Source: Candidatus Nezhaarchaeales archaeon (GTDB taxonomy: Archaea; Thermoproteota; Methanomethylicia; Nezhaarchaeales; JAWCJE01). Taken from it: a stretch of 64,000 bases of DNA. The stretch covers positions 117,963-181,962 of the forward strand of contig JAWCJE010000001.1 of NCBI GenBank assembly GCA_038853715.1, given 5' to 3'. Below the pieces are notes generated by a model that saw nothing but the letters and a program-made list of their open reading frames with translations, made no database searches and was not told the origin of the DNA. Of the stretch, positions 45,042-63,068 are shown in pieces. The translations under genes were made by a program, and so were the position numbers. The stretch's first letter is position 1, and each line of letters opens with the position of its first letter.

Positions 45042-46388
45042 GTGATGGAGAAGGTTAGGTACTGGGATCCTAAAGTGGAGCTAATGTCCGTCGAGGAAAT
45101 GAGGAAGCTGCAGTTAAAACGGTTAAAAGCAGTCCTTAACTACGTTTACGAGCGTAGCGCTTTCTACCGTAGGAAGTTTGATCAGGCCGGGGTTAAACCA
45201 GATGACCTTAAAACCCTTGAAGACTTAAGGAAGTTCCCCTTCACCGTTAAGGACGATCTAAGGGAGTATGGCTATCCGCATGGAGGTGACTTCAGGTGTG
45301 TACCTATGGATGCTACTCCATACTTCCATTGTACCTCGGGGACCACTGGTAAGCCTACGGTAATGTACTATACGGAGAAGGATAAGGGGACTTGGGAGGA
45401 TTTAGGGGCGCGCTCATTAACCGCCGCTGGCGTTAGGAAGGGTGACATAATGCTGAACTGCTACGGCTACGGTCTATTTACCGGTGGATTAGGATTCCAT
45501 TACGCTGGTATTAGGGTTGGGGCGGTCGTAATACCTTGGAGCGTGGGGAGGACGGAGGCTATGATACAGGCGTTGAAGGACTTCAAGGTAACAGTATTAA
45601 CCGGAACCCCGTCGTACGAATACTACATAGGCGAAGTCATCGGTAAGATGGGCCTTGACCCCGTTAAGGACTTATACTTAAGGGTAGCGCTACCTGGAGC
45701 TGAAACGTGGACCGAGGATATGAGGAGGAGGATTGAGGAGAGCTTGGGGCTAAAGGCCCATGGTGGTGGAGCCGTTAACTGCTACGGTCTAGCCGAGATG
45801 GGCGGCCCCTTCGTGGGTATGGAGTGCGTTTACGAGAAGGGGGTACACCTATGGGTTGACAGCTACTACGTTGAGGTAATAGATCCTGAAACCGGTGAAG
45901 CCTTAGAGCCTGAAGAGGAGGGGGAACTCGTATTTACGAACATGGCTTATGAGGGGATGCCGATAATACGCTACAGGACTAGGGACATAACCAAGCTGAT
46001 AGTGGACCCATGCGAATGTGGTAGAAAGGCGTTTCCACGCTTCCCTAGGATCGTGGGGAGGACCGATGACTCCTTCTCGTATAAGGGTACGAAGATATTC
46101 CCATCGGCCGTTCACGAAGCCGTTATGAAGTTCCCAGAGGTACAGGAGTTTCAAATAGTGGTTGATAAAACAGTGATGCCATACACGATGGTCATAAGGG
46201 TGGAGGTACCGAAGGATAAGCAGACTCCTGAGTTAAAGGAGAGGATCGAGAGGGAGCTTGATAGAACGTTATTCGTGGCTCCACCAGTAGAGATAGTGGA
46301 CGTAGGCGTCCTTCCAAGGTTTGAAGGTAAAGCTAAACGCGTCATATTTAAAGAGCCCGCTAAACCTGAAGAGCTAAAAATTAGGTAA
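45042..46388 (+). CDS. Phenylacetate-CoA ligase-like / coenzyme F390 synthetase-family adenylating enzyme.
   Basis: 448 aa with 'TSGTTGKPTV', 'YGLAEMGG' and PaaK-type C-terminal regions. Confidence 0.8.
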   Translation: MMEKVRYWDPKVELMSVEEMRKLQLKRLKAVLNYVYERSAFYRRKFDQAGVKPDDLKTLEDLRKFPFTVKDDLREYGYPHGGDFRCVPMDATPYFHCTSGTTGKPTVMYYTEKDKGTWEDLGARSLTAAGVRKGDIMLNCYGYGLFTGGLGFHYAGIRVGAVVIPWSVGRTEAMIQALKDFKVTVLTGTPSYEYYIGEVIGKMGLDPVKDLYLRVALPGAETWTEDMRRRIEESLGLKAHGGGAVNCYGLAEMGGPFVGMECVYEKGVHLWVDSYYVEVIDPETGEALEPEEEGELVFTNMAYEGMPIIRYRTRDITKLIVDPCECGRKAFPRFPRIVGRTDDSFSYKGTKIFPSAVHEAVMKFPEVQEFQIVVDKTVMPYTMVIRVEVPKDKQTPELKERIERELDRTLFVAPPVEIVDVGVLPRFEGKAKRVIFKEPAKPEELKIR

Positions 46389-46824: not shown

Positions 46825-47316
46825 ATGATCTTCGAAGTTATAGTTAGGGCCTTAATCCATGATGGTGAAGGGAGAATCCTCATAGGTAGGAAGAGGCGGG
46901 ATATACCTCACCCCCTTCAAGGCCGATGGCATTTTATAGGTGGAAGACTGGAGTACGATGAAGACCCTTGGAACGCCGTAGTAAGGGAGGTTGAAGAGGA
47001 GGTTGGGATTAAGGTGCGCCCGGTTAGGCTGATAGACGCCTACCCCGAATTCTTGGTTTGGCCGATGGAAAGCGGTATACCCTCCCAGTATACTTTACAT
47101 TTAGTCTTTGAATGTATGGCTACTACGCTGGAAACAGTTAAACCTAGCGATGACGTGGAGGAGGCTAAATGGATTAGAGTTGAGGAGTTAAGGGACTATC
47201 TAGATGATAGAGAATCGTTGCTTCGTTCAAGTAGGGTGGTTAGCTTTATAGAGTTATTGAAGGGGCGGGGCGATGCCATGCCTTTAAGCAGTATAGAGGG
47301 GTTGGGGGATCGTTAA
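46825..47316 (+). CDS. NUDIX hydrolase.
   Basis: Nudix box 'GGRLEYDEDPWNAVVREVEEEVGI'. Confidence 0.8.
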   Translation: MIFEVIVRALIHDGEGRILIGRKRRDIPHPLQGRWHFIGGRLEYDEDPWNAVVREVEEEVGIKVRPVRLIDAYPEFLVWPMESGIPSQYTLHLVFECMATTLETVKPSDDVEEAKWIRVEELRDYLDDRESLLRSSRVVSFIELLKGRGDAMPLSSIEGLGDR

Positions 47317-47317
47317 A

Positions 47318-48283: not shown

Positions 48284-48877
48284 ATGGTTAAGCTCGAGGT
48301 TAAAAGGTTATGGGAGTTTTTCCGCCTACTCTACCCATGTCAGGTGGTGTTTATCACTTGTTATGCTAACGGTAGGTCGAACGTCATGACGTCGTCGGCC
48401 CTACCGGTATCCTTTAAGCCCCCGCTTTTAGCCGTAAGTATAGCTCCAACTAGGTATTCCTATCACCTCATAAGGATGGGTAGGGAGTTCGTAGTCAATA
48501 TTCCATCGGCTAGCTTAATGGAGAAAGCCTTACTCTGCGGTATGACCTCCGGGAGGGGGATGGATAAGTTTAAGGAGCTAGCTTTAACCCCTGCTAAAGC
48601 TAGATTGGTGGCCGCTCCGATTATTCAGGAGTGTATAGCTCATTTAGAGTGTAGGTTGGTTAAGGAGGTGGAGGCGGGTGATCACGTACTGTTTATCGGT
48701 GAGGTACTTACGGCTTACGCTGAAGCGGATCTAGTAAGTGAGGACGATGACGGTATACTGGTTTGGAACTTGGAGAAGGCTAATTTACTACTACACGTAG
48801 GAGGGAGGATTTTCACCGTTCCCGGGAAACCCGTGAAGGCTTTAACCGCGTACTCATTCTTTACTAGGTTTAATTAA
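48284..48877 (+). CDS. Flavin-reductase-like FMN-binding domain protein.
   Basis: 'NVMTSSALPVSFKPPLLAVSIA' split-barrel flavin reductase pattern. 197 aa. Confidence 0.65.
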   Translation: MVKLEVKRLWEFFRLLYPCQVVFITCYANGRSNVMTSSALPVSFKPPLLAVSIAPTRYSYHLIRMGREFVVNIPSASLMEKALLCGMTSGRGMDKFKELALTPAKARLVAAPIIQECIAHLECRLVKEVEAGDHVLFIGEVLTAYAEADLVSEDDDGILVWNLEKANLLLHVGGRIFTVPGKPVKALTAYSFFTRFN

Positions 48878-48925
48878 ACTCTAGGGTAAGGTTTAATTGC
48901 TGGTCCTCCCCCCACTTCGACGGCC

Positions 48926-49489
48926 ATGAGGATAGTGGTCGGTATTTCGGGGGCTAGCGGCATTATCTACGGGGTTAGGTTATTGCAGGCTTTAAAGGAG
49001 TTAAACGTGGAAGTACATTTAACCATGACTAACTTAGCTGTAAAGATCGCTAAGCTTGAAGAGGATATCGACAGGGAGGATATCGTTAAGCTAGCGGCTT
49101 ACTACTACGATGTTGACGACTTAACGGCTCCTATAGCGAGCGGCTCCTTTACGCACGACGGGATGGTTATAGCTCCGTGTAGTATGAAAACGTTAGCCGG
49201 AATAGCTAATGGCTACGCTGACAACTTACTATTGAGGGCTGCCGACGTAACCTTAAAGGAGGGGAGGAAGCTTATCTTAGTGCCGAGGGAAACGCCGTTA
49301 AGCGTAATCCACTTAAGGAACATGTTAACACTAGCGGAAGCCGGAGTAATCATACTGCCAGCTATGCCAGCGTTTTACGGTAGGCCGAAGAGCATTAAAG
49401 ACCTGGTAGACTACGTGGTAGGACGCGTACTAGACCAGTTAAAGATACGGCATAAGCTATATGAAAGGTGGGGAGGTCCACGCGTTTAG
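48926..49489 (+). CDS. ubiX: Flavin prenyltransferase UbiX (prFMN synthase).
   Basis: 'MRIVVGISGASGIIYGVRLLQAL' and the conserved 'IAPCSMKTLAGIANGY' motif. Confidence 0.85.
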   Translation: MRIVVGISGASGIIYGVRLLQALKELNVEVHLTMTNLAVKIAKLEEDIDREDIVKLAAYYYDVDDLTAPIASGSFTHDGMVIAPCSMKTLAGIANGYADNLLLRAADVTLKEGRKLILVPRETPLSVIHLRNMLTLAEAGVIILPAMPAFYGRPKSIKDLVDYVVGRVLDQLKIRHKLYERWGGPRV

Positions 49490-49734: not shown

Positions 49735-51000
49735 ATGAAGAACGTGGTGATCGTTGGAACCCTTGATACTAAGGGGGCTGAAATTCTCTACTTAAAGGAC
49801 CTCATATTGAAGCGGGGGCATAACGCCTTAGTGATGGATTTAAGCATGGGGCGCGAACTTAGACTTAAAGGTGAAATCACGCCGGAGGAGGTAGCTAAGG
49901 CTGCCGGCGTGGATATAGAGGAGGTTAGGGCTTTAGCGGATAGGGGGCAGAGGCTTAAAGCCAGCGAGCTAATGGTTAAAGGCGCTATTGAAAAGGTTAA
50001 GCAGCTTTACGCGGAGGGTAAGCTACATGGTATAGTCGCGCTCGGAGGCCATACCGCTACGGTAACCGGTACTACGATTATGAGGGCTTTACCCTTCGGC
50101 GTCCCGAAACTTATGATATCCAGCACGGCCGGTATGCCGGCCTACGTAGCGCAGTACATAGGTACTAACGACGTAATGCTGCTTCATTCAGTGCTAGATA
50201 TAGCTGGTTTAAACGACTTCATAAAGAACGTCCTCGAACGTGGAGCTGGAGCAATCTGCGGCGCTATCGAAACCGTAACGACTACTACGGCCGCCCTACT
50301 AACTAAGAAGGAGAAGCCGCTAATAGCCATAACGGAGTTCGGTTTCTCGGAGAAATGCTGTACGAAGGTTAAGGAACTACTTAAGCAGAAGGGCTACGAG
50401 GTAATAGCGTTCCACGCTCAAGGAGTAGGGGATAGGGCTATGGAGGACCTCTTAAGGCAAGGCTACTTCGACGGCGTCATAGACGTCGTACCGGCGGGCG
50501 TTAGCGAAAACCTATTTAAAGGTAATAGGGATGCCGGCCCGAATAGGCTTGAGGCAGCCGGGGAAAGGGGGTTACCGCAGGTAGTAACGCCCTGCGGCTT
50601 TGAAATGATAAGCTGCGGGCCCTACCCGGAGAGGACGAAGCAAATAGTTCCAGACTACGAGAAGAGGAAGATGGCGTTAATAGATCCGTTAAGGGCTCAA
50701 GCGAGAACAACGGCTGAAGAGTTGAAGAAGGTGGCTAAAGTGGTAGCTGAAAAGCTTAATAAGGCTAAAGGCCCCGTTAAGTTCCTAATACCGCTTAAAG
50801 GCTGGTCGTCGCTATCTAGGCCCGGCGGTCCACTACATGAACCTGAGACCGATATGGTTTTCGTAGAGGAATTAAGGAAGCAGTTAAAGCCCGAGATTGA
50901 AGTAAGGCTAATCGACGCCGAGCTTAATGACCCCAGCTTCGCTGAAGAAGTGTTTAAAGCGTTTGAAGAAGCCTTTAAACAAGCAGTTAAAAAGCCTTAA
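49735..51000 (+). CDS. UPF0261 (Tm-1-like) family protein.
   Basis: 421 aa. 'VVIVGTLDTKGAEILYL' N-terminus and the 'MRALPFGVPKLMIS' motif, which is shared with the paralog at 63126. Confidence 0.6.
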   Translation: MKNVVIVGTLDTKGAEILYLKDLILKRGHNALVMDLSMGRELRLKGEITPEEVAKAAGVDIEEVRALADRGQRLKASELMVKGAIEKVKQLYAEGKLHGIVALGGHTATVTGTTIMRALPFGVPKLMISSTAGMPAYVAQYIGTNDVMLLHSVLDIAGLNDFIKNVLERGAGAICGAIETVTTTTAALLTKKEKPLIAITEFGFSEKCCTKVKELLKQKGYEVIAFHAQGVGDRAMEDLLRQGYFDGVIDVVPAGVSENLFKGNRDAGPNRLEAAGERGLPQVVTPCGFEMISCGPYPERTKQIVPDYEKRKMALIDPLRAQARTTAEELKKVAKVVAEKLNKAKGPVKFLIPLKGWSSLSRPGGPLHEPETDMVFVEELRKQLKPEIEVRLIDAELNDPSFAEEVFKAFEEAFKQAVKKP

Positions 51001-51107
51001 CGGGCGCCTAAAACCTACGACCCTTTATAAGCCGTAGACGGGTAGTAGTGGATGGAAGGCTGGGTGTTAGCACTTTAGGCTTAATCGCTCCTCGGGAAAA
51101 AAGGCTC

Positions 51108-53438
51108 CTACTCGAGTTTAAAGAGTTCTTTAAACTCCTTTGGTTTAGGTAAGCCTTTTTTCTCAGGGTTCCATTCTTCGTCCGATACTTTGTACACCTT
51201 ACATAGGAAGCCTCTAAGAGTCCAGCAGCCTAGCACTTCGTCGCACCACTTATCGGGATCGTCATCGGTTAGAACGTTTACGTTGGAGATCCAAACGCCG
51301 TGAAGGTATGGTTCCTCACCAGGCATTTCAGGGTACCACCAACCGTGTTGCGCATGAACTACGTTGGGGTGGATGCCGTCGAATAGCTTAGCTTTCTGCA
51401 TGATCCTACCCTTCTTTGTTTCAATCCACGTCCAGTCGCCATCACTTATCCCTAGTTTAGCCGCCGCTTCAGGGTGTATCTCGACTCTAGGCCATGGGTA
51501 TATCCTCCTAAAGGACTCGATTTGACGGTGCTCGGAGTGGAAGTAGGGTAGGAACCTACCGCCGGTTATCAGTATGAACGGATACTCCTTAGCTAGCTCC
51601 GGAGTACTAATGGGGCTTTCGGGAGGCTCCTTATAGTAGGGGAGTGGGTCGTAGCCTAGCTTCTCCATGATGGTGGAGTAAAACTCGATCTTCCTAGTCG
51701 GGGTGCCGAACCCCATCTTCTCGTACTTCTTATACTCGGGTGGAGGAGCGTATATGCCGCCGGTCTTCTCGATGAACTCCTTGAAGGATGAATAGCCTAG
51801 GGGCTTAAGCCTATAGTCGTATACTTCCTCAACGGCCCTCCAAGGCCAGTATTCACCCTGTCCAAGCCTTACTGCTAAGCCCCTCCAGAACTCGTAGTCC
51901 GTACGCCTTTCGTATTCACCGGGCTTACTAGCCGGTAATACCGCCTCGCATGCTTTAATACTAGGAGAGTTTGTTCTAAACTCGTAGAGGGTAGGTCTTT
52001 CAAGCCAGGAAGCGGCCGGGAAGACGTAGTCGGCTAGCTCAGCGCTAGGTGTTAGGAAGTAGTCAACCACTACGTAGAGGTCTAGGTTCTTTAAGGCTTC
52101 ATACACTAGCTTAACGTTCGCCTGAGTGACCATCGGGTTGCTGGACATAGTTATTAAGGCCTTAACGGGGTAAGGCTTACTAGTGATTATAGCCCTGTAG
52201 AGTAGGGGTGCGTTAGCTAGGCACGTATAGGCTTGTAGGTCTCCGCGCTTACCCCATACCTTCTCCACGTTGCCCTGTATAAGCTCGTAGCCTGGCCATG
52301 ACTCTAGCTTAAACCTATCTGATCCTATCTGCTTTTTACGCCGTTCAGGGGGTAAAGCGTTAGGAAGCTCCATTTCGTGCTCGGTTATCAATTTAGGGTT
52401 AGGGCCAGCTAGCTGATAGCCTCCAGGTATGTCGATGCTCCCGGTTAAGGCGGTTATAATGTGACAGGCGTGTATTACTGAGTGGGCATTATACTGATGC
52501 GCGGCGCCCATCCCTTCGATAGCTACCGCTGGCTTATTTGCCGCGAAGGTTCTAGCGGCTTCAACTATCTTCTCGGCTGGAACCCAGGTTATCTCAGCGG
52601 CCTTATCCGGCGGATACTGCTTAACGCGTTCATGAAGCCTATCGAAGCCGTAGCACCATTTCCCCACGAACCCTTTATCGTAGAGCCCCTCCTCTATGAT
52701 CACGTTCATCATGGATAGTAGCAACGCTACATCCGTACCGGGCCTTACCTGTAGCCATAGATCGGCGTTTCTAGCGGCTTCACTCCTCCTAGGGTCTACA
52801 ACTATTAACTTAGCGCCCTTCTTCTTAGCCTCCCTAATCGCGTCCCAGATTGTTTGATGGGCAGGTGGAGGGTTCCTACCTACTAGCATTATGCATCGAG
52901 AATACGTTAAGTTCTCGCCTGGGTACCACCATGGGAACCAGCCTAATACTGCTAATGCAACCGTGGCCGAATTACCGTGGCATATATGGGCCTGGCCAAC
53001 CTGGTTAGGGCTACCGAGGAGGTTAAGGAAGCGGTACCTAAACTCTTCGTAGGTTCTACAGGTACCGTGGGTTACCGCTACGGCTTCGGGGCCGTACTTA
53101 CTAATGACCTCCTTAATCTTGGAGGCTACTTCGTCTAGTGCTTCGTCCCACGACGTCGGCTTCCACCTGGCTTCACCTCTTTCGCCTACCCTTTTCAACG
53201 GGTACCTAAGCCTTTTAGGATGGTGGAACCACTCCTTAAAGGAGCGCCATCGAGGGCAGTCAGCCCTAGGCGAAGGGCCGGCATCGATAAGGTCGCCGTA
53301 CTTAGACCTCTTCACGTCAACGAAGCACTTCGGCTTACACCACCAGCAAATAGCTTTCCCTACGTATACTTCACTCACGAAAGCCGCGCTGACGTAAGCG
53401 TCGCTACCTTCTTTCAAGCTCCTTTCTCCTAAGTTCAA
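51108..53438 (-). CDS. Molybdopterin (Mo/W-bisPGD) oxidoreductase of the DMSO-reductase superfamily, cytoplasmic; substrate unknown.
   Basis: 776 aa with the N-terminal cysteine motif 'CWWCKPKC...C' (Fe-S) and MopB/molybdopterin-binding regions. There is no twin-arginine signal. Its start overlaps the upstream ligase gene by 35 nt. Confidence 0.7.
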   Translation of the reverse strand: MNLGERSLKEGSDAYVSAAFVSEVYVGKAICWWCKPKCFVDVKRSKYGDLIDAGPSPRADCPRWRSFKEWFHHPKRLRYPLKRVGERGEARWKPTSWDEALDEVASKIKEVISKYGPEAVAVTHGTCRTYEEFRYRFLNLLGSPNQVGQAHICHGNSATVALAVLGWFPWWYPGENLTYSRCIMLVGRNPPPAHQTIWDAIREAKKKGAKLIVVDPRRSEAARNADLWLQVRPGTDVALLLSMMNVIIEEGLYDKGFVGKWCYGFDRLHERVKQYPPDKAAEITWVPAEKIVEAARTFAANKPAVAIEGMGAAHQYNAHSVIHACHIITALTGSIDIPGGYQLAGPNPKLITEHEMELPNALPPERRKKQIGSDRFKLESWPGYELIQGNVEKVWGKRGDLQAYTCLANAPLLYRAIITSKPYPVKALITMSSNPMVTQANVKLVYEALKNLDLYVVVDYFLTPSAELADYVFPAASWLERPTLYEFRTNSPSIKACEAVLPASKPGEYERRTDYEFWRGLAVRLGQGEYWPWRAVEEVYDYRLKPLGYSSFKEFIEKTGGIYAPPPEYKKYEKMGFGTPTRKIEFYSTIMEKLGYDPLPYYKEPPESPISTPELAKEYPFILITGGRFLPYFHSEHRQIESFRRIYPWPRVEIHPEAAAKLGISDGDWTWIETKKGRIMQKAKLFDGIHPNVVHAQHGWWYPEMPGEEPYLHGVWISNVNVLTDDDPDKWCDEVLGCWTLRGFLCKVYKVSDEEWNPEKKGLPKPKEFKELFKLE

Positions 53439-55083
53439 CCCTTTTAATTTTCCCAGTTTCGGTCTTTGGTAGTTCGGTAACGAACTCTATTTCTTTAGGG
53501 GCTTTGTAGGGCGCTATCAAACCTTTAACGAAGCCCCTTATCTCCTCCTTTAGTTTATCGCTTGCTTCATAGCCGGGTTTTAACACTATGAAGGCTTTAA
53601 TCGCTTGTCCACGTTCAGGGTCCGGTACACCTATGACGCCGGCTTCAGCTATAGCTGGATGCTTCACCAGGACCTCTTCAACCTCGTGAGGGGATACCCT
53701 ATAGGCCGCCGTCTTTATTATGTCGTCACTCCTACTAACAAACCAGAAGAAGCCATCCGCGTCCCTATAACACACGTCGCCTGTATAGTTCCATCCATCC
53801 TTAACGGATTCCGCTTGCTTCTCAGGCTTCCTCCAGTACCTTATTCCTACGGGGCCTATTACCGCTAGATGTCCAACTTCGCCTACGGGTTGCTCTCTAC
53901 CTTCATCGTTAAACACCCTTACATCGTAGCCTGGCACTGGGAGTCCCATGGAGCCCGGCTTGATTTGTCCGAACCTCGATGATATGAAGCCGTCGAGGAG
54001 CTCCGTACAACCGATATGCTCGAGGACTTCGCAGCCGAAGAACCCCTTTACCTCATGGTATAATGAAGGAGGACAGGGTTCACCGGCGGTTACACAAACC
54101 CTAAGCGAGCTGAAGTCGTATTTTTTACGTTCCTCCTTTAAGGCCACCATGGCCCTATAGGCCGTAGGAACGGCGTAGAGGATCGATATCCTATGCTTCT
54201 CTATGAGCTCGAACATGAGTATGGGGTCAAACCTCCTAGGCCCTATTAACGATGCCGTCGCTCCATGACGGAGGGGGTTGCCTATCAACCCCGTATGTCC
54301 GTAGGCGAAGGCCATGGTGGGTGGGCCTCCCCATACATCCTTTTCATTGGCCATTAAAACGTTCTTCGCGTAACAATCGGCTATGGCTAAGTAGTGCCTA
54401 TGCGTATGAATACAACCTTTAGGAGGCCCAGTGGTACCCGACGTGTATAGTAGTAGTGCGATTTCATCCTGATCGACGCGAACGGGGTCTAGCTTCGTAG
54501 CGTCCTTAAACCTATCCATGAGGTCGTCGAAGGCTATGTACGGATCCTTAACCTCGCTTGGCTTAACCCCTGCTAATACTACGTGTCTAACCGTTTTAAG
54601 CTCGTCCTTAACTTTTTCAACTTCTTCAAGTAGGGGTGGGGTCGTAATGAGGATTTTAGCTTCACAGTCGTTAGCTATGTATGAAATCTCCTTAGCTCTA
54701 AGTAGGGTGAACGTCGGGACGCTTATAGCGCCTATCTTTTGGGCTGCTAAGCTACTTACTACGAACTCAGGTATGTTAGGGAGCCTTAACATTACGCGGT
54801 CTCCGACTTCAACGCCTAGGCTTTTTAAGGCGTTGCCGAACCTATTCACCATTAACTGAAGCTCGCCGTAGGTTATCCTACGTTCGTCGATTAGGATAGC
54901 TGCCTTACCCCCATACCCCTTCCTAGCGTTTTCGTCTACCAGGATCTCGGCTATGTTGAGCTTAGCAGGCCAAGTTTTAGCCTCGGGGAAGTCCAGTTTA
55001 AACCTCGGCCACATCTCCTTCGGGGGGCCGTACTTCTCGATTAACGACAACCCTTCCCACCCTACGGGAAGAGTTCCTTCCAC
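53404..55083 (-). CDS. AMP-dependent synthetase / acyl-CoA (aryl-CoA) ligase.
   Basis: 'LYTSGTTGPPKG' AMP-binding motif, 'YGHTG' and the C-terminal 'GKIKRVEL'. It overlaps the UbiD-like gene by 22 nt. Confidence 0.8.
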   Translation of the reverse strand: MEGTLPVGWEGLSLIEKYGPPKEMWPRFKLDFPEAKTWPAKLNIAEILVDENARKGYGGKAAILIDERRITYGELQLMVNRFGNALKSLGVEVGDRVMLRLPNIPEFVVSSLAAQKIGAISVPTFTLLRAKEISYIANDCEAKILITTPPLLEEVEKVKDELKTVRHVVLAGVKPSEVKDPYIAFDDLMDRFKDATKLDPVRVDQDEIALLLYTSGTTGPPKGCIHTHRHYLAIADCYAKNVLMANEKDVWGGPPTMAFAYGHTGLIGNPLRHGATASLIGPRRFDPILMFELIEKHRISILYAVPTAYRAMVALKEERKKYDFSSLRVCVTAGEPCPPSLYHEVKGFFGCEVLEHIGCTELLDGFISSRFGQIKPGSMGLPVPGYDVRVFNDEGREQPVGEVGHLAVIGPVGIRYWRKPEKQAESVKDGWNYTGDVCYRDADGFFWFVSRSDDIIKTAAYRVSPHEVEEVLVKHPAIAEAGVIGVPDPERGQAIKAFIVLKPGYEASDKLKEEIRGFVKGLIAPYKAPKEIEFVTELPKTETGKIKRVELRRKELERR

Positions 55084-56489
55084 CTTGATTTAACCTTCTC
55101 CACTACTGCCTTATCTAGTTCTACGGGTACTGGCTTCTGCCTCCACTCGTAGGGTATGGTGGCGTCGATTATAATCCTCGAGGTTATTAACCTAGCCTCC
55201 GGGTCTATTGGTAGCGATGGGTCGAGTGGTGTGGATCTACCGCGCTTAATTATCTCGGTACTCCTGTAGGGCTGGTATCTAACACTTAAAGCCCACAGCA
55301 CCCTTGATAGGTCGGATGGATCTATGTCGTCGTCGACGACTATAACGGTTTTAAGCCCATAGGCGCCCATCTCGGTCGATATGGCCGCCGTCCCAACCTG
55401 GATTGAATGGCCCGGGTACATCTGCTTAACAGATATTATGGCTATGTAGCGGCCGGCGGCTTCGGGAGGACAGTATACAGCCTTAATGCCTGGTATCTTC
55501 ATCTCCTCAAGCTCGCTCCAGAGGGAGGCGGTATAGGTTAACGCCATAACCATGTGGGTATCGGTTACAGGCCTACCTACGCTGGTCATCCAGAAGATCG
55601 GGTTATCCCTATAGGTAACGCAGTTAACCTTTATGAAGTTCCTTTTAACTGCGCCAAGCCCTGAATAGTAGCCCGTGTACTCGCCGAAGGGCCCCTCATC
55701 CCTAAAGGCCGAGGCATCCACCTCTCCTTCGACGACGATCTCGGCCCCGATGGGTATTGGTAGATCCACCGTTTCACCTTTAACCACCTCGACTGGTGAA
55801 CGCCTAAGCGCTCCAGCGTAGTCGTACTCTGAGCGCTCGGCAGGCAACCTTGAAGCGGAGACCAAGAATATTATGGGGTCCACGCCTACGCATACCGCCA
55901 CCGGCATGGGCTCCTTTCGCTCAGCGTACTTCTTTAACATTAAGTCTGCGTGTTTACCCGGGATGAACTGTGTACCTAAGGTTTGCCTATCGAGTAGTTG
56001 AAGCCTATAGGTCCCTATGTTAACCCAGCCGCTTTCAGGATCCTTGGTTATAACGCAGACAGCGGTTCCGAAGTAGCGTCCTCCATCGCGAGGGTATAGG
56101 TGTGGAACCGGAAACTTAGTGAGGTCAACCTTATCACCTTCGTCTACGTTCTCCTTGCAAGGAGCTTTACCCTCCTTAACCCATTTCGGGGGTATTAGCT
56201 TATCAGGCTTGGTTCTTTCAACCCATTCCTTGGTGAGCTGCGGTAAAATGCTTGTTTTAGGCATTTCCATTGCTAATGCAAGCCTACTTGTCGTGGTAAG
56301 GGCGCTAGCGAAAACCGGGGTTTTATAGCCTTTAACGTTCTCGAAGAGGAGTGCGGGTCCATCCTTCTCCTCGTTCATTTTGGCTATGTGGGCCATCTCT
56401 AAGTACCAGTCGACCTCGGCTTTTACCCTCCGTAGCTCCCCTTCACCCTCAAGCCTGGCTATAAAGTCTCGAAGGTCCTTATAAGGCAT
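55062..56489 (-). CDS. UbiD-family (prFMN-dependent) reversible (de)carboxylase.
   Basis: 475 aa. 'MPYKDLRDFIARLEGEGELRRVKAEVD' N-terminus and UbiD conserved regions throughout. Confidence 0.85.
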   Translation of the reverse strand: MPYKDLRDFIARLEGEGELRRVKAEVDWYLEMAHIAKMNEEKDGPALLFENVKGYKTPVFASALTTTSRLALAMEMPKTSILPQLTKEWVERTKPDKLIPPKWVKEGKAPCKENVDEGDKVDLTKFPVPHLYPRDGGRYFGTAVCVITKDPESGWVNIGTYRLQLLDRQTLGTQFIPGKHADLMLKKYAERKEPMPVAVCVGVDPIIFLVSASRLPAERSEYDYAGALRRSPVEVVKGETVDLPIPIGAEIVVEGEVDASAFRDEGPFGEYTGYYSGLGAVKRNFIKVNCVTYRDNPIFWMTSVGRPVTDTHMVMALTYTASLWSELEEMKIPGIKAVYCPPEAAGRYIAIISVKQMYPGHSIQVGTAAISTEMGAYGLKTVIVVDDDIDPSDLSRVLWALSVRYQPYRSTEIIKRGRSTPLDPSLPIDPEARLITSRIIIDATIPYEWRQKPVPVELDKAVVEKVKSRWKELFP

Positions 56490-56591: not shown

Positions 56592-57440
56592 GTGCGCAAT
56601 CGCGATGAGAAGGTCGTCGAATGCTTAATGAGGCTGGGCCTTCCAGCTGCTGAAGCTAAGCTATACGCGTTCCTACTTAAAAGCCCGGGGCTTAACTTAA
56701 GGCAGATTAGCGAGCACCTTAAAATCTCGATTCCTAGGGTGTACAAGCTTATCGCCAACCTTAAGTCGAGGGGGTTAATGATTAGCTCACCGCGCCAAAG
56801 GTCTAAAGCCTACTTCGTAGTGCCCCCAGCCGTAGCTGCATCGGTTCTAACTAAGGGTTTTGAGGAGAAGTTCTATACGGCCTTAAACCTAAAGGACGAG
56901 TTAGTAAGGGAGGTTAAAGTACTGGGTCAACCGTGCTTTAACGACTACTCCCTCTTCGAGTACACGAATAGGCACGCGATTATCCATACGCTGAAGAACC
57001 TTATTGAGGAGAGTAGGGGCGAGCTTATGAGCATTATGACGGCCGGCTGCCTTATACGATCCGTGTACCTGTTTAAGGATGAAATTAGGAGTGCTACGTC
57101 GCGAGGTGTAAAAGTATTCATCCTCGCGCCCTTCTCCAAAGCCCCCTACGGGGTTATGCTCGAGGCTATGAGGTGGGGGGAGTGCAGGGAGGTTGAAGAG
57201 GTTGAAGCTAAGGTACTACTAAAAGACTCTGAAGAAGCGTTTTTAACGCCGGCTAAAGAAGCGCTTAACGAGGGGGATGCCTATGAGTATGGAGTACACA
57301 TACGGAACAGGAGCATTGTTAACGTTTTAAGGAGGATGTTTACCTTCCTATGGCATTCCTCCCAACCCATAACCCCTCAACGCCTAAGGGATGAGGTAGG
57401 GGCTAAAGTAGGAGTAAGTAAAGCTACGCTGAAAGCCTAA
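56592..57440 (+). CDS. TrmB-family transcriptional regulator, transcribed divergently from the UbiD operon.
   Basis: TrmB-type N-terminal HTH 'LGLPAAEAKLYAFLLKSPGLNLRQISEHLKISIPRVYKLIANLKSRGLM'. The likely true start is the ATG at 56630. Confidence 0.6.
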   Translation: MRNRDEKVVECLMRLGLPAAEAKLYAFLLKSPGLNLRQISEHLKISIPRVYKLIANLKSRGLMISSPRQRSKAYFVVPPAVAASVLTKGFEEKFYTALNLKDELVREVKVLGQPCFNDYSLFEYTNRHAIIHTLKNLIEESRGELMSIMTAGCLIRSVYLFKDEIRSATSRGVKVFILAPFSKAPYGVMLEAMRWGECREVEEVEAKVLLKDSEEAFLTPAKEALNEGDAYEYGVHIRNRSIVNVLRRMFTFLWHSSQPITPQRLRDEVGAKVGVSKATLKA

Positions 57441-57626: not shown

Positions 57627-57725
57627 TCTGAACTCATCTGAAAACTCATTAGTCGCTTTTGAGGCTTTAGTAGGTTAAAATAGCTAGTCAATTGATTATC
57701 AAGAGTTTTCAGCCGAGTTCTCTGA
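57627..57725. repeat. Inverted-repeat element copy C ('tctgaactcatctgaaaactc' ... 'gagttttcagccgagttctctga').
   Basis: 18 of 20 bp in the arms are complementary across a roughly 55-bp spacer containing 'gtcaattgattatc'. The right arm supplies the last 9 codons and the stop of the 57699..58154 gene. Confidence 0.55.
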
Positions 57726-58154
57726 CAATTTTGAGAATAGGGGATCAAGATATTTTTCCGAATATGCAGACAGATGTATAAATAGAGATGAGCGAATGTG
57801 GAAAACTAGGTTTTTTGCTGGTACCCGCATCTTCCCAGCTTCTTTCTCTGCTATTTGTAATGAAACCTCATTCAGCCTTTTCACTAATGGATGCTCTGTA
57901 TTTATCCTGTATAGCGTTGCTCTTCCTATGTTTCTTGAAGGCTTAACTATTTCTAACTCCTCAAGGTCTTTGAAGTTCTTGTAGAAAGTTTGCTTGCTCA
58001 TTCCTAACTCTCTTACAACCTCGCTCTTGCTGAAGTCAAAGTATGGGTTATCTAGGAAAATATCTAATATTCTTAGCTTAGGTGAGTAGCCTAACATCTT
58101 TACGAAAAGGGTTTCCCCGAGATCCTTGTACCTTACTTCCGACATCTCAAGCAC
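57699..58154 (-). CDS. Winged-HTH transcriptional-regulator-like protein (low-GC islet).
   Basis: 151 aa. 'KLRILDIFLDNPYFDFSKSEVVRELGMSKQTFYKNFKDLEELEIVK' looks like a wHTH. GC is about 40%. Confidence 0.5.
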   Translation of the reverse strand: MLEMSEVRYKDLGETLFVKMLGYSPKLRILDIFLDNPYFDFSKSEVVRELGMSKQTFYKNFKDLEELEIVKPSRNIGRATLYRINTEHPLVKRLNEVSLQIAEKEAGKMRVPAKNLVFHIRSSLFIHLSAYSEKYLDPLFSKLSENSAENS

Positions 58155-58775: not shown

Positions 58776-59900
58776 TTACCGCCCTTGATCAGGTGGAGGC
58801 GTACCCGGCGGCGCCGGTAGGGTTAGGGGTGTTCTAAGCCAAAACGCGTTATGAGCTATGAGGGCTGGGGCTAGTACGCATAGGTTAAAGTATATTATGG
58901 CTAGGTTCACGTCGAAAAACGCGAGTCCTACAGCAGCTGCAGTAGCTGCTAGCGGTGAAAGTATTAGGGTTAGTAGGGAAGCCCAGATGGCTGTTAGTAC
59001 GATCACGATGACGAAGCTAAGCATACCCCTCTTCGGCTGCTTATACTGAGCTACGCCGGTAAAGGAGAACATCCAGGAGAAGGTTAAGGACCAGAATATT
59101 ATCGACGACGCCACGGCCCCGAAGGAGAAGGTGGGGCTTACCCCCGCCCTTAAACCGCCCTCCCAGCATACGTAGGCCAGTACGAGGCTAACCAGTGTTT
59201 GAGCAACCGCCATACCCGGCTGCTTAAGCTTTCCGAAGGGCCACCCCTGGGTTACGAAGATGGGTGAGAACACGAAGAACCACGCTATATGCCACACTAA
59301 GAAGCCCACCAACCAGTCGATTGGGATGGGCCCCTTAGGGTCAAAGGGTGTTCCAGCCAGTGGTGTTCCCTGTAGGTTTACTAGCGTAAGCCACATGATG
59401 GACGCTACTAGGTAGATAACGACGGCCGCTATCGGGATCATGGCCCACGGCTTAACGCGGCCGGCGAAGGGCCAGCAGCCCCAGTTAATACACCAGAGGA
59501 GGGTCGTCCAGAAGGCTAGTACGCCGAACCAGAGGAAGAAGGGGAATATCGGCCACCTCGGGTATACGTAGTGCATGAAGGCTACGTTCACCGCTACTAT
59601 AATCCACCAGATAACGGTCATACCTAGGCCCGTTAACCCCCTACTTACGCCGGGTTTCCACCTTCCAGCTGGAGGAGCTAGAGGCCAGTTTCCACCGGCA
59701 ACAGCCAGTATTCCGAGCCAAACCAACATTATGAGGGAGCCCGGTAGAAAGCCTGTTACAACTAGGCCTACTGAAGGTAGGTATGTGAAGGCCGCTAAGC
59801 CGAAAACGGTGAGGGCTACGAACTGGATTAACGCAGCCTTAGGCCCGGTGGGGCCTATACCTATTTTAGGAGGAGCTTCCTTCCCGCTCACCTTTTCCAC
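58776..59900 (-). CDS. Polytopic, Trp-rich integral membrane protein, a possible transporter. A hairpin plus T-tract terminator lies at its 3' end.
   Basis: 374 aa with about 10 hydrophobic helices. The hairpin 'ggcggtaaaaccccgcc' followed by 'ttttttt' (minus strand) sits at the stop codon. Confidence 0.55.
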   Translation of the reverse strand: MEKVSGKEAPPKIGIGPTGPKAALIQFVALTVFGLAAFTYLPSVGLVVTGFLPGSLIMLVWLGILAVAGGNWPLAPPAGRWKPGVSRGLTGLGMTVIWWIIVAVNVAFMHYVYPRWPIFPFFLWFGVLAFWTTLLWCINWGCWPFAGRVKPWAMIPIAAVVIYLVASIMWLTLVNLQGTPLAGTPFDPKGPIPIDWLVGFLVWHIAWFFVFSPIFVTQGWPFGKLKQPGMAVAQTLVSLVLAYVCWEGGLRAGVSPTFSFGAVASSIIFWSLTFSWMFSFTGVAQYKQPKRGMLSFVIVIVLTAIWASLLTLILSPLAATAAAVGLAFFDVNLAIIYFNLCVLAPALIAHNAFWLRTPLTLPAPPGTPPPDQGR

Positions 59901-60054: not shown

Positions 60055-61917
60055 ATGAGTAGGGAGGAACGCTTTCCATTCCCCGAGGAAGTAAAGATAC
60101 CTCCGGAGCTAGAAGGATGGGAGGAGATGTATCCTTCACATTACCTCTTCAGTAAGGAGAGGGAGGAGTGGGAGAAGAGGCACTTCTGGTACCACGATAA
60201 AATACACGGCCCGGACCCAATGTACCCGCTGGATTTAATCTTTCACGAGGCGTGGCAAGCAGCCCTAGCCCAGTATACAACGAGAACGTTCGCGATACCG
60301 CCAGCTCAGGGAGTAGCTCAGAGGATTTTGGGCTGCTACTTCTACATAGCCGCGGTTGAACCGCCGCCCGAAGAGGTTGTAAAGGAGAAGGCTGAACTGT
60401 TTAAGAAGCGCGTGTTGGACTTCGTCTTTAAGGAGTACGGCCCTAAGATGTGGGAGTCGTGGCTTAAGAGGTTTAGGGAGCTTGGTGAAAAGATGGCGCG
60501 GATCGAAGTACCCCAGGAGCTACCGAAGTACGAAAGCGACGACGTAGTTTTCCCAGAGCCGCGCGGGTATTCAACGGCGCATAAACTTGTGGAAGCGTGG
60601 AACGAGTTAATTAACTACCTGTATAGGGGGTGGCAGTACCACTTCCAGTACTTAAATTTAACCTACCTAGCGTACTTGATGTTTACGGATCTTTGTAAGA
60701 AGCTATTCCCCGGAATTAGCGATAGCGCCATAGGGAAAATGGTGGCCGGAGCCTACGTACAAATGTTCCGCCCGGAGGAAGAGCTGTGTAGACTGGCTAG
60801 GTTGGCCATTACCTTGCCGGGTGTACCCGAGGTCCTGAAGAAGGATGTTCCGGCTAAGCAGAAGATGGAGGAGCTCTCTAAGTTTACCGAGGGAAAAATA
60901 TGGCTTGAGGAGTACAAGAAGATAGAGGACCCGTGGCTATACGTTTCGTGCGGTAGTGGATGGTACCACTACGAGGGAAGCTGGATAACTCACCCGGACG
61001 TACCCTTCGGGTACCTCAAAAGCTACATTGAAAGGTTGGAGAAGGGGGAAAGGATCGAGAGGAGGCTCGAGGAAATAGATAAGAGGAGGGAGGAAATAGT
61101 TGCCGAGTACCGCAAGCTTATAAAGACCGAGGAAGATAGGAAAGCCTTCGACGAAGCCTATAGGCTATGTAGAAGGATTTACACCTACGCCGAGGACCAC
61201 CTCTTCTGGGTGGAGCACTGGTTCCATACTATCTGGTTTAGGAAGGTGAGGGAGTTTGGAAACGTATTCGTTAAGTACGGCTTCGTAAAGGAGGTGGACG
61301 ACATATTCCTGTTTAACAGGTTTGAGATACCGGTAATGATCGAGGACTTAAACATTGCGTGGTCGCTGGGTGAAGGAGTACCTCCGAGGGCTAAGTACTG
61401 GCGGGAGAAGGCTGAGAAACGTAAGAAGATTCTAGAGGCAGCTAAGAAGTGGACGCCACCACCGGCGCTAGGAATACCCCCGAAGGAGGTTGTGGAGCCC
61501 TTCACGGTAATGCTGTGGGGTATTACAACGGAAAAGGTGAAGGAGTGGTTGAAGGGAGTTGTCGTTAAGCTGGAGGAAATAACCGAGATTAAGGGGTTCC
61601 CGTCCTCCTCAGGCCTCGTTGAAGGGCCCGCCAGAGTAATTAAGCTGGTGGATCAGATAGGAGAAGTACAACCCGGTGAAATTCTAGTGTGTCCCAATAC
61701 CAATCCTGCGTGGGCACCCGTGTTTACGAAGATTAAAGCCGCCGTAACCGATATCGGCGGGATAACTTCTCACGCCGCAATAGTAAGCAGGGAGTACGGC
61801 CTACCGGCGGTAACGGGTACAGGTATTGCCACCTCGGTGATTAAAACCGGAGACATGATAAGGGTTGATGGAGATAGGGGAGTAGTTACAATCCTAAGCC
61901 GAGCCGCGCAAACGTAA
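60055..61917 (+). CDS. PEP-utilising-enzyme mobile (phosphohistidine) domain protein, phenylphosphate-synthase alpha-subunit-like (lacks the ATP-grasp domain).
   Basis: 620 aa. The C-terminal 'TDIGGITSHAAIVSREYGLPAVTGTG' is the phospho-His swivel domain of PEP synthase/PPDK. It has a long unique N-terminal region. Confidence 0.7.
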   Translation: MSREERFPFPEEVKIPPELEGWEEMYPSHYLFSKEREEWEKRHFWYHDKIHGPDPMYPLDLIFHEAWQAALAQYTTRTFAIPPAQGVAQRILGCYFYIAAVEPPPEEVVKEKAELFKKRVLDFVFKEYGPKMWESWLKRFRELGEKMARIEVPQELPKYESDDVVFPEPRGYSTAHKLVEAWNELINYLYRGWQYHFQYLNLTYLAYLMFTDLCKKLFPGISDSAIGKMVAGAYVQMFRPEEELCRLARLAITLPGVPEVLKKDVPAKQKMEELSKFTEGKIWLEEYKKIEDPWLYVSCGSGWYHYEGSWITHPDVPFGYLKSYIERLEKGERIERRLEEIDKRREEIVAEYRKLIKTEEDRKAFDEAYRLCRRIYTYAEDHLFWVEHWFHTIWFRKVREFGNVFVKYGFVKEVDDIFLFNRFEIPVMIEDLNIAWSLGEGVPPRAKYWREKAEKRKKILEAAKKWTPPPALGIPPKEVVEPFTVMLWGITTEKVKEWLKGVVVKLEEITEIKGFPSSSGLVEGPARVIKLVDQIGEVQPGEILVCPNTNPAWAPVFTKIKAAVTDIGGITSHAAIVSREYGLPAVTGTGIATSVIKTGDMIRVDGDRGVVTILSRAAQT

Positions 61918-62009: not shown

Positions 62010-63068
62010 TTGAGCTACGCGTTAAGGTTTGAAGAAATAGATAAGTCCTCCCTACCCTTGGTAGGCGGTAAAAACGCTAGTCTAGGGGAGTTGATTAAAG
62101 CAGGCTTTAGGGTACCTCCAGGCTTTGCTGTTACTACCGCTAGCTACATTAAGTTTATTACGGCGACCGGGATTAAGGAGTCGATATACGAGGCGCTGTC
62201 AGCCGTTAAACCTGACGACGACGCTTCAATTAACGAAGCCAGCGCAAGGATTCGCAGCCTATTCGAGAAGGCTCAAATACCTAAGGACGTCGAGCAGGAG
62301 ATAAGGAAGAACTACCTTGCCCTATGCGAGGTATGCGGACGTGAAAACGTACCAGTAGCGGTACGATCCAGTGCTACCGCCGAAGACGTACCAACGGCGA
62401 GCTTCGCCGGGCAGCAGGAAACATACCTATGGGTTAGAGGGGCTGACGAGGTGACCGGTAAGGTTAAGAAGTGCTGGTCAAGCCTGTTTACCCCCCGCGC
62501 TATATCCTACAGGATAAGGATGGGCTTCCCCCACGAAAAGGTCTTTATGAGTGTTGGTGTTCAAAAAATGGTAAATGCTAAGTCAGCCGGGGTAATGTTC
62601 ACGCTTGACCCTACAACCGGCGACCCCTCTAGAATAGTGATTGAGGCTAACTGGGGCTTAGGCGAAGCCGTGGTTTCAGGCTCCGTAAACCCCGATAGGT
62701 TCTCCGTGGATAAGGTACTGCTTGAAATAAGCGAGAAGAAGATATCGGTTAAAGAGGTAATGTCGGCCTTAGACCCCGTGAAGAAGGAGGTAGTATTAGT
62801 AAGTACGCCGCCGGAGAAGCGAAATAGCCCCTGCCTAAACGATGAAGAGGTTATAGAGCTGGCGAAAAACGGGAAGCGGATCGAGGAACACTACGGATGC
62901 CCCCAAGACATCGAGTGGGCTATAGACCTCGACCTATTCTTCCCCGATAACGTGTTTATCGTTCAAAGCCGTCCCGAAACCGTTTGGAGCCAACGTAAGA
63001 GGGAGGTAATTTTTCGCGGTAAAAGCGTAAACGATTTAATATGGGAAAGCGTCTTTAAAAAGCGTTAA
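62010..63068 (+). CDS. PEP-synthase/PPDK N-terminal nucleotide-binding (ATP-grasp) domain protein, phenylphosphate-synthase beta-subunit-like.
   Basis: 352 aa with a TTG start. 'LPLVGGKNASLGELI' is the pyruvate phosphate dikinase PEP/pyruvate-binding (PPDK_N) signature. It is a separate polypeptide from the His-domain protein. Confidence 0.7.
   Translation: MSYALRFEEIDKSSLPLVGGKNASLGELIKAGFRVPPGFAVTTASYIKFITATGIKESIYEALSAVKPDDDASINEASARIRSLFEKAQIPKDVEQEIRKNYLALCEVCGRENVPVAVRSSATAEDVPTASFAGQQETYLWVRGADEVTGKVKKCWSSLFTPRAISYRIRMGFPHEKVFMSVGVQKMVNAKSAGVMFTLDPTTGDPSRIVIEANWGLGEAVVSGSVNPDRFSVDKVLLEISEKKISVKEVMSALDPVKKEVVLVSTPPEKRNSPCLNDEEVIELAKNGKRIEEHYGCPQDIEWAIDLDLFFPDNVFIVQSRPETVWSQRKREVIFRGKSVNDLIWESVFKKR

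Follow-up and report, generated by a model that had tools for sequence, protein, structure and literature searches.

The 64,000-nucleotide stretch of DNA analysed here, from a hot-spring archaeon of the Candidatus Nezhaarchaeales (contig JAWCJE010000001.1 of assembly GCA_038853715.1) and referred to as the window, carries a gene for a molybdenum or tungsten enzyme of the dimethyl sulfoxide reductase (DMSOR) superfamily, called the Mo gene and the Mo enzyme in the following. Reading the sequence confirmed an uninterrupted open reading frame (ORF) for it at 51108..53438 on the minus strand. As an earlier note on this DNA had stated, the Mo gene lies downstream of genes for an AMP-forming aryl-CoA ligase and a UbiD-family prenylated FMN (prFMN) (de)carboxylase, all on one strand. 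That note had pointed to an anaerobic aromatic pathway, and genes that it missed, encoding phenylphosphate-synthase-like (Pps) proteins, the flavin prenyltransferase UbiX and MarK-type kinases, narrow the pathway to phenol activation. Because of their presence, the cluster in the window is, as judged from its predicted proteins, an anaerobic phenol-activation cluster (Table 1).

Three start codons are available to the Mo gene, namely GTG 53378 (756 aa), TTG 53417 (769 aa) and TTG 53438, from which the mechanical longest ORF of 776 aa begins. The first of these is supported, since homologs of the Mo enzyme begin about 10 residues ahead of the first Cys and since gene calls on identical contigs of other metagenome-assembled genomes (MAGs) mostly use GTG 53378 and otherwise TTG 53417. 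From GTG 53378 the gene begins after a 25-nt gap past the ligase stop at 53404, and from TTG 53417 it would overlap the ligase gene by 14 nt. The ligase in turn is called from TTG 55050 (548 aa), with GGTGG upstream, 11 nt past the UbiD stop and without overlap. The earlier note had described a 776-aa enzyme whose gene overlaps the ligase gene by 35 nt and is translationally coupled to it; the superfamily holds, the supported length is 756 aa, the overlap turned out to be an artefact that arises when the first TTG behind a stop codon is used as start, and the coupling is not supported. Short spacers, the shared strand, a TATA-like box with a Shine-Dalgarno-like GAGGT ahead of ubiD and an oligo-T run after the Mo gene, likely the archaeal terminator, nevertheless mark ubiD, the ligase gene and the Mo gene as a tight co-directional predicted operon in which the Mo gene is last.

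The best matches of the ligase in the PDB are anthranilate-CoA ligase (4wv3) and benzoate-CoA ligase (2v7b), and NCBI names the UbiD protein phenylphosphate carboxylase subunit beta. The UPF0261 gene convergent with the Mo gene encodes a protein that matches the MarK structure 9mpy over its full length (E 2e-56) and keeps the D-T-K motif. In 2025 UPF0261 was shown to be an ATP-dependent kinase of phenolic hydroxyls para to a carbonyl and was named MarK (PMC12624787).

Table 1. Predicted features of the window, with strand and basis of assignment.
Feature	Position	Strand	Basis or remark
AH-like Mo/W-bisPGD + [4Fe-4S] enzyme (AH, acetylene hydratase; PGD, pyranopterin guanine dinucleotide)	51108..53378	-	756 aa, GTG 53378 start
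Oligo-T run (T6)	51097..51102	-	5 nt past Mo gene stop; read from sequence
AMP-forming aryl-CoA ligase, 548 aa, benzoate-CoA ligase family	53404..55050	-	TIGR02262 396 bits vs cutoff 375
UbiD-family prFMN (de)carboxylase, phenylphosphate carboxylase beta-like	55062..56489	-	TIGR02724 528 bits vs cutoff 469
TrmB-family transcriptional regulator, divergent from the operon	56592..57440	+	Pfam TrmB + Regulator_TrmB
Phenylphosphate synthase alpha-like (PpsA-like), substrate-binding domain + C-terminal phospho-His swivel	60055..61917	+	PF00391 residues 539-609; NF006153/PRK08296 888 bits, over cutoff
Phenylphosphate synthase beta-like (PpsB-like), ATP-binding PPDK_N domain	62010..63068	+	PF01326 399 bits
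UPF0261/MarK-family putative aromatic (phenolic OH) kinase, convergent with Mo gene	49735..51000	+	Pfam UPF0261 + UPF0261_C
Second UPF0261/MarK-family gene, cut by window end	63126..64000	-	395 aa complete on identical contigs
UbiX flavin prenyltransferase, prFMN synthesis for UbiD	48926..49489	+	TIGR00421 268 bits, over cutoff; PF02441
Flavin reductase-like protein	48284..48877	+	PF01613
NUDIX hydrolase	46825..47316	+	PF00293
PaaK-like (phenylacetate-CoA ligase family) aryl-CoA ligase	45042..46388	+	TIGR02155 413 bits, under cutoff 646
151-aa protein, helix-turn-helix-like	57699..58154	-	
374-aa protein	58776..59900	-	no Pfam or NCBIfam match
Four large Proton_antipo_M (Mrp/Mbh/complex-I antiporter-like) subunit genes in a row	15255..24461	-	

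Cofactor motifs, clade and active site

The Mo enzyme matches PF00384 (E 2.8e-47) and PF01568 (E 1.4e-19), both over the Pfam gathering cutoffs, and PF04879 gives no match in the Pfam scan. Its N-terminus (...VYVGKAICWWCKPKCFVDV...ADCPRW) holds a C-x2-C-x3-C...C motif whose cysteines C11, C14, C18 and C41, in the numbering of the 756-aa protein, are invariant in 23 homologs. Residues 1-60 of the longest ORF contain no twin-arginine, and only 10 residues stand ahead of the first Cys. A search of every ORF of at least 45 aa in the window found no ferredoxin CxxCxxCxxxC motif, and no partner of the Fe-S, NrfD/DmsC or cytochrome type came up when about 45 ORFs of the window were scanned with Pfam. 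Just past the window end (position 64000), the DNA of GCA_038861225.1 carries a 290-aa C-terminal fragment of an AH-like paralog, 39% identical to the Mo enzyme (L001 1-1377; about 1-2.5 kb out), and the end of a gene for a 698-aa Molybdop_Fe4S4-containing DMSOR protein, neither of them a partner of the Fe-S or anchor kind; in other MAGs a radical-SAM gene takes that position. These observations support a stand-alone, cytoplasmic enzyme, and by its motifs the protein is predicted to be a soluble single-subunit W- or Mo-bis-pyranopterin protein with one N-terminal [4Fe-4S] cluster. The four-Cys motif, the lack of a Tat signal and the lack of an adjacent Fe-S or membrane-anchor subunit gene, all noticed before, are thereby borne out, the last for the whole window.

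The best match in the PDB is AH (2e7z, 492 bits, E 2e-146), with 41% identity over 680 aligned residues, compared with 235 bits for PsrA and about 200 bits for formate dehydrogenases (FDHs). An AlphaFold2 model (pLDDT 89, pTM 0.92) aligned by Foldseek with 2e7z at a TM-score of 0.89/0.92 and an rmsd of 2.7 Å, the next matches reaching about 0.75; more than 180 PDB matches had E<0.001, and 50 of the 50 matches listed belong to the DMSOR family. NCBIfam equivalog models for FDH, PhsA, DmsA, NasC and others all scored far under their cutoffs. An identity as FDH, formylmethanofuran dehydrogenase (FMD) or PsrA was rejected on this ground, with 311 bits on TIGR01591 (cutoff 666), 271 bits on PhsA (cutoff 694) and a score to AH more than twice that to any FDH or Psr. 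The residue C133 aligns with AH Cys141 and with the Sec/Cys of FDH, and a Cys133-His134 dyad is present; Leu, however, stands where FdhH has Arg333, and there is no RGQNNVQG motif. The earlier note was therefore right that the enzyme is no respiratory reductase, and the placement in an FDH or FMD clade that would have spoken against it was not observed. Its comparison with transhydroxylase-like enzymes fared less well, and such an identity was rejected, since pyrogallol-phloroglucinol transhydroxylase ranks only 40th in the structure comparison, at 17% identity. The MoCoBD/Ald_Xan_dh_C, FAD and 2Fe-2S domains of the 4-hydroxybenzoyl-CoA reductase, or 4-HBCR, of the xanthine oxidase (XO) type had no match in the Mo enzyme by Pfam. 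Homologs number in the thousands, with many paralogs per genome in Dehalococcoidia and Desulfobacterota.

The metal-ligand Cys of AH is kept (Cys141 = C133) and is invariant, and Lys48 of AH corresponds to R43. The hydrophobic ring that receives acetylene in AH, which we take from the 2E7Z description to comprise Ile113, Ile142, Trp179, Trp293 and Trp472, is replaced by C107, H134, Q175, E288 and R468. At the position of AH Asp13 the Mo enzyme has K15 in a CWWC-K motif, a Lys that is invariant in its orthogroup; this comparison rests on the published AH motif and not on an alignment of the N-terminal 38 residues of AH. No aligned AH-like sequence has an Asp after the second Cys, three N-terminally incomplete ones being unscored there. 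In AH, Asp13 is essential and is hydrogen-bonded to the W-bound water, and Trp179 and Trp472 are active-site residues (PMC12096430). A genuine acetylene hydratase was rejected because of the change of Asp13 to Lys15 and the replacement of the hydrophobic pocket. The best explanation of these substitutions is that the AH scaffold has been kept and its reaction centre rebuilt for what would be a polar or anionic aromatic substrate, the predicted active site being rich in Lys, Arg and His (K15, K/R17, R43, H134, R/H468). Active-site positions vary widely among AH-like paralogs.

The orthogroup and its gene context

The orthogroup is defined by a signature of which the Mo enzyme has all elements, C-x2-C-K-P-[KR]-C, C41-x-R43, [SC]107, C133-H134, Q175, E288 and [HR]468. 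Sequences with this signature were monophyletic in 100 of 100 bootstraps of a neighbour-joining tree on corrected p-distances, AH and a Gordonibacter homolog falling outside. A two-motif scan, in which one motif was the signature C[FW][WF]CKP[RK]C, confirmed 419 metagenome loci, and 66 non-redundant loci with the signature were analysed. They stem from Nezhaarchaeales, a bacterium (76% identity), Anaerolineales/Dehalococcoidia, Desulfobacterales and Syntrophaceae, and the orthogroup is widespread in archaea, Chloroflexi and Desulfobacterota. In the literature we found no description that links acetylene-hydratase-like enzymes with phenylphosphate genes or with aromatics in Nezhaarchaeales.

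The gene context was compared between 35 orthogroup loci of at least 10 kb and 65 loci of other AH-like paralogs, the ORFs of the fetched loci being called mechanically and classed by BLASTP against reference proteins. At least one of PpsA/B, UPF0261, DUF89 or UbiD was found at 29/35 orthogroup loci and at 11/65 paralog loci (p = 2e-10). Taken singly, Pps-type genes (19/35 versus 4/65, p 1e-7), UPF0261 (18/35 versus 4/65, p 4e-7), the DUF89/ARMT1 phosphatase (12/35 versus 0/65, p 8e-7) and aldehyde:ferredoxin oxidoreductase (AOR; 8/35 versus 1/65, p 8e-4) were enriched, whereas UbiD (10/35 versus 9/65) and CoA-activating enzymes (12/35 versus 18/65) did not differ significantly and are common to the whole AH-like family. 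No XO-family gene occurs at 33 of the 35 long orthogroup loci.

The same genes recur in operon-like order. The arrangement ppsA-ppsB-ubiD-UPF0261-Mo is found at L100 and L108, UPF0261-DUF89-Mo at L017, L018 and L131, and AOR-PpsA-like-PpsB-x-DUF89-Mo at L127 and L129, and the immediate upstream neighbour on the same strand is DUF89 or UPF0261 at 17 of 51 loci. Around the orthologs with 87% and 76% identity UbiD, the ligase, UPF0261 and UbiX are all kept. Homologs of the window PpsA-like protein (60-64% identical) adjoin orthogroup Mo genes elsewhere, PpsA-like genes lying directly beside the Mo gene at L012 and L093.

UPF0261 genes beside AH-like Mo enzymes often come in 2-4 copies and sometimes without a Pps-type kinase (L007, L011, L096, L106), and their products may be ADP-forming phenol kinases of anaerobes. 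At many Desulfobacterales loci (L017, L018 362-5346, L109, L131, L127, L129) the DUF89/ARMT1 gene stands immediately upstream of the Mo gene, and its product may serve phenylphosphate carboxylase as aryl-phosphate phosphatase or may cooperate with the Mo enzyme. At L027 and L035 the gene directly upstream of a paralog encodes a family III CoA-transferase, as would suit CoA-ester substrates in the family.

Some relatives are joined to a candidate electron-transfer module. The protein P0036 (1201 aa; L009 10001-13606), which has the exact orthogroup signature, carries an N-terminal GltD-like module for NAD(P)H, FAD and [4Fe-4S] fused to its AH-like part. Further fusions of this kind are P0060 and P0143 (1216 aa), the sizes ranging over 1201-1216 aa, and at L025 a separate GltD-like gene lies directly upstream of an AH-like paralog. 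Because such reductase modules are fused or adjacent, and because AH Asp13 and the AH pocket are replaced, the predicted proteins imply redox chemistry and not hydration, and the non-redox chemistry that the earlier note had brought up is to that extent disfavoured. Beside the P0036 fusion stands an HGD-D pair, weighed as a benzoyl-CoA reductase candidate, whose best match, under cutoff, is the double-cubane reductase family, with weak matches to BcrC/BzdN.

A hidden partner subunit was considered and rejected. Apart from the lack of a ferredoxin motif in the window, DmsB-like partners were found at 0/35 of the orthogroup loci, and the DmsB-like genes at related loci adjoin more distant DMSOR paralogs (23-39% identity) and not AH-like genes. 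At L007 (2967-5618) the genes DsrE - TusA - x - DsrM-like - DsrK-like run directly upstream of the Mo gene of the 87% ortholog on the same strand, and this set could be a membrane-linked electron input or an unrelated sulfur-relay cluster. As partners the DsrM/DsrK-like genes were rejected; they follow DsrE/TusA, have no counterpart in the window and are probably unrelated.

Proposed reaction and rival explanations

From homology, active-site substitutions, fusions and neighbourhood we tentatively infer, with a probability of about 0.4, that the Mo enzyme is a reductive dehydroxylase that would convert 4-hydroxybenzoyl-CoA to benzoyl-CoA, as a non-homologous analog of HcrABC. The substrate and direction are suggested because the Mo gene directly follows a PpcB-like UbiD gene and a gene of the benzoate-CoA-ligase family, because the AH-like protein is the only redox enzyme in the phenol cluster, both in the window and at most orthogroup loci, and because the nearest known redox relatives of AH are aromatic dehydroxylases. 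Clusters of known phenol degraders comprise phenylphosphate synthase, the carboxylase, a CoA ligase and an XO-family 4-HBCR (PMC1924859, PMC6114531), and the Pfam scans found no XO-family gene in the window. The pathway would run from phenol over phenylphosphate, 4-hydroxybenzoate and 4-hydroxybenzoyl-CoA to benzoyl-CoA and water. In the last step the reduced metal centre, bound by Cys133, would abstract the para oxygen, and a soluble donor would return two electrons by way of the [4Fe-4S] cluster; this donor may be ferredoxin here and NAD(P)H, through the GltD-like module, in relatives. Among the hydroxylation, dehydroxylation or hydration steps proposed in the earlier note, reductive dehydroxylation is thus the best supported, hydration being disfavoured and hydroxylation unlikely.

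The comparison with known systems sets the Mo enzyme between several of them. With AH of Pelobacter/Syntrophotalea acetylenica (2E7Z) it shares the four-domain fold, the single cytoplasmic subunit without Tat signal, the four-Cys [4Fe-4S] site and the Cys metal ligand; it differs in the substitutions of Asp13, Lys48 and the hydrophobic ring, in the place of AH outside the orthogroup, in the fusion of relatives to NAD(P)H reductase modules and in a gene context that is aromatic and not that of acetylene or acetaldehyde metabolism. HcrABC/PcmRST of Thauera, Geobacter and Desulfatiglans occupies the same cluster position, after phenylphosphate synthase, carboxylase and CoA ligase, and the proposed net reaction is equal. 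It is, however, a three-subunit XO-family enzyme with a molybdopterin cytosine dinucleotide cofactor and FAD and 2Fe-2S subunits, whereas the Mo enzyme is predicted to be a single bis-PGD protein unrelated to it in sequence and fold. The pyrogallol-phloroglucinol transhydroxylase of Pelobacter acidigallici is likewise a cytoplasmic DMSOR-family enzyme acting on a phenolic ring, but, besides being remote, it carries three Fe-S clusters in a beta subunit and none in its large subunit.

Apart from AH, the nearest functionally characterised relatives are the catechol dehydroxylases (PMC7028382). Those of gut bacteria (Dadh, Hcdh and Cadh of Eggerthella, Dodh and Cldh of Gordonibacter) use bis-molybdopterin guanine dinucleotide, have AH as their closest characterised relative and remove aromatic hydroxyls reductively, and the Gordonibacter type is soluble and without Tat signal like the Mo enzyme. 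The comparison was made through the Gordonibacter homolog L087, which is 43% identical and in the same superclade, and not through the characterised enzymes' own sequences. The Eggerthella enzymes have a Tat signal, a 4Fe-4S subunit and a membrane anchor and the Gordonibacter type has a small 4Fe-4S partner, whereas the Mo enzyme has neither arrangement. The active-site signature also differs, and catechols serve these bacteria as respiratory acceptors, in contrast to the catabolic setting of phenol carboxylation and CoA ligation in the window operon.

Several points weigh against a 4-hydroxybenzoyl-CoA dehydroxylase. The proposed substrate is without a catechol motif. The characterised dehydroxylases of the DMSOR family require that motif, and in late 2025 DMSOR-type dehydroxylases were known for catechols only and 4-HBCR as the XO type only (PMC12771579). 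The window holds no benzoyl-CoA reductase and no downstream ring-degradation genes. Genes for aryl kinases and phosphatases (Pps, UPF0261, DUF89), and not those for UbiD or CoA ligases, are the ones linked specifically to the orthogroup, and therefore the enzyme could act at or before the phosphorylation step. Finally, 2 of the 35 loci carry an HcrA-like XO-family gene (L109, L141), directly upstream of the Mo gene at L109, so an enzyme of this orthogroup does not in every case stand in for the XO type.

The linkage to kinases leads to the strongest of the alternatives, which is unlikely on present evidence but deserves serious attention. Here the enzyme would act upstream, reducing a dihydroxybenzene of the catechol or hydroquinone type to phenol, which PpsAB or UPF0261 would then phosphorylate and UbiD carboxylate; among relatives of the gut catechol dehydroxylases it would be one that is cytoplasmic and has no partner. 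Catechol dehydroxylation is the chemistry of the nearest redox relatives, the 43% identity of the Gordonibacter homolog agrees with it, PpsA-like genes directly beside the Mo gene at L012 and L093 fit it, and the HcrA-like enzyme at L109 and L141 would fit a division of labour between two dehydroxylases. The window Mo gene is, however, co-transcribed after the ligase gene in the predicted operon and not with ppsAB; the Gordonibacter type has W134 and W288 where the Mo enzyme has H134 and E288; and such a pathway would still need a 4-hydroxybenzoyl-CoA reductase, none of which was seen in the window or at most loci.

One may also speculate that an aryl phosphate is itself the substrate, a rather improbable reading according to which a phosphorylated phenolic made by the kinase, e.g. 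4-phosphooxybenzoyl-CoA, would lose its phosphate by reductive elimination, or an aryl phosphate would be transformed and then handled by a DUF89, HAD or HD phosphatase. Aryl phosphates are the classical activated form for the reductive deoxygenation of phenols. The core UPF0261 - DUF89 - Mo on one strand (L017, L018, L131 and also L109), the 17/51 upstream neighbours, the restriction of DUF89 to orthogroup loci and the cationic active site would all agree with such a substrate, and UPF0261 is a proven phenolic-OH kinase whose D-T-K motif the window copy keeps (PMC12624787). A more definite version, phosphate-assisted dehydroxylation, is about as doubtful; in it the orthogroup enzyme would work with a UPF0261/MarK kinase and often with a DUF89 phosphatase, the kinase would phosphorylate the para-OH of 4-hydroxybenzoyl-CoA or a related phenolic acid, and the low-potential W/Mo centre would cleave the aryl C-O bond reductively, releasing phosphate and benzoyl-CoA. 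An aryl-phosphate-dependent reaction is, however, without precedent in enzymology, phenylphosphate formation and the phosphatase component of phenylphosphate carboxylase explain the kinases and phosphatases sufficiently, the window has no DUF89 gene, and the ligand of the cationic residues could just as well be the phosphates of CoA.

Oxidation of a C-H bond with water, from benzene to phenol or at a side chain, with the product pulled by ATP-dependent phosphorylation, appears improbable. Hydroxylation of hydrocarbons with water is known from DMSOR-family enzymes such as ethylbenzene dehydrogenase, the linkage to phenol kinases is tight, and the NAD(P)-linked module could serve as electron acceptor. 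Against this, aromatic C-H hydroxylation with NAD(P)+ is by estimate very unfavourable both thermodynamically and kinetically, the similarity to ethylbenzene dehydrogenase is low (105 bits, 18% identity), and the polar, charged pocket suits benzene poorly. The only genes genetically tied to the conversion of benzene to phenol are Gmet_0231/0232 of Geobacter (PMC4033198); a link to them was rejected since the proteins are unrelated, which also counts against a hydroxylase.

A non-redox hydratase, or another lyase-type reaction of the AH kind on an unsaturated intermediate, is more improbable still: AH is the closest solved structure and the enzyme stands alone like AH, but the essential Asp13 and the hydrophobic ring are replaced, Asp is absent after the second Cys in every scorable AH-like sequence, and the NAD(P)H reductase modules argue for net electron transfer. 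That the protein is the catalytic subunit of an FDH/CO2 reductase or of a sulfur/polysulfide reductase with partners encoded elsewhere can practically be dismissed, since the automatic JGI names ("anaerobic selenocysteine-containing dehydrogenase", "thiosulfate/polysulfide reductase chain A"), the FDH-like dyad and the DsrM/DsrK-like genes of L007 are outweighed by the model scores, by the missing Arg333 and RGQNNVQG and by the lack of a Tat signal and of an NrfD or 4Fe-4S partner in the window.

Removal of the para-hydroxyl is an obligatory step by which phenol, p-cresol, 4-hydroxybenzoate and tyrosine-derived phenolics enter the benzoyl-CoA pathway. If the dehydroxylation of 4-hydroxybenzoyl-CoA proposed here is true, a conserved AH-like W/Mo enzyme without partner, sitting in operons for phenol activation in archaea and in bacteria from sediments, would represent a missing enzyme class, and DMSOR-type dehydroxylation would reach past catechols; we know of no enzyme for the dehydroxylation of gentisyl-CoA or the deamination of 4-aminobenzoyl-CoA. 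The phenol-degrading potential of Dehalococcoidia, Desulfobacterales and thermophilic archaea would then be under-called when annotation seeks hcrABC only. Phosphate-assisted dehydroxylation, if true, would occur across Archaea, Chloroflexi and Desulfobacterota and would join the XO-type 4-HBCR and the catechol dehydroxylases as a third, ATP-coupled way of deoxygenating phenols. For the UPF0261/MarK aromatic kinases, whose activity was described in 2025, the orthogroup context provides a specific partner and a pathway to belong to. Nezhaarchaeales have been discussed mainly for methane and hydrogen metabolism, and the cluster suggests aromatic catabolism in this order.

Further genes in the window and at related loci

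Upstream of the convergent kinase gene, a NUDIX hydrolase, a CbiR-like TIM-barrel phosphodiesterase, the flavin reductase-like protein and UbiX are encoded in a row (46825-49489, plus strand). The row looks like a self-contained prFMN supply module, in which dimethylallyl monophosphate (DMAP) would be formed from the diphosphate DMAPP, the flavin reductase-like protein probably supplies FMNH2 to UbiX, and prenylation would yield the cofactor of UbiD. The NUDIX hydrolase, which recurs at orthogroup loci (L007, L019), may accordingly supply DMAP or act as a CoA or nucleotide pyrophosphatase. PaaK-like genes recur beside AH-like genes at other loci. The 374-aa and 151-aa genes between the TrmB regulator and ppsA are kept in all identical Nezhaarchaeales contigs, and for the 374-aa protein no counterpart was found at the other loci compared (L007-L090). 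Housekeeping genes and genes for Mrp/Mbh-type antiporter subunits make up the remainder of the window, and the row of four large Proton_antipo_M genes suggests a membrane-bound hydrogenase or Mrp-type complex.

Classical W-containing AOR genes lie near Mo genes at L023, L091, L120, L121, L127, L129, L137 and L156. As BamB they were rejected, being of the classical AOR type (366 bits to 1aor versus 181 to BamB), and their products could be a source of reduced ferredoxin or could channel 4-hydroxybenzaldehyde into the pathway. At L093 (5408-13995) an orthogroup variant with CKPH has acetone/acetophenone-carboxylase-like genes (gamma, hydantoinase A, B) on one side and a PpsA-like gene on the other, a layout that recalls, by analogy, the kinase-carboxylase-phosphatase logic of acetovanillone and 4-hydroxyacetophenone catabolism. 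In gut urolithin metabolism both dehydroxylase types work side by side. HcrA-like XO-family genes also occur near AH-like paralogs outside the orthogroup in Dehalococcoidia and Syntrophales (L029, L037, L043, L044), the protein at L044 5361-7652 reaching 720 bits on TIGR03194 (4-hydroxybenzoyl-CoA reductase alpha), under cutoff, and this hints at two dehydroxylase types side by side there as well.

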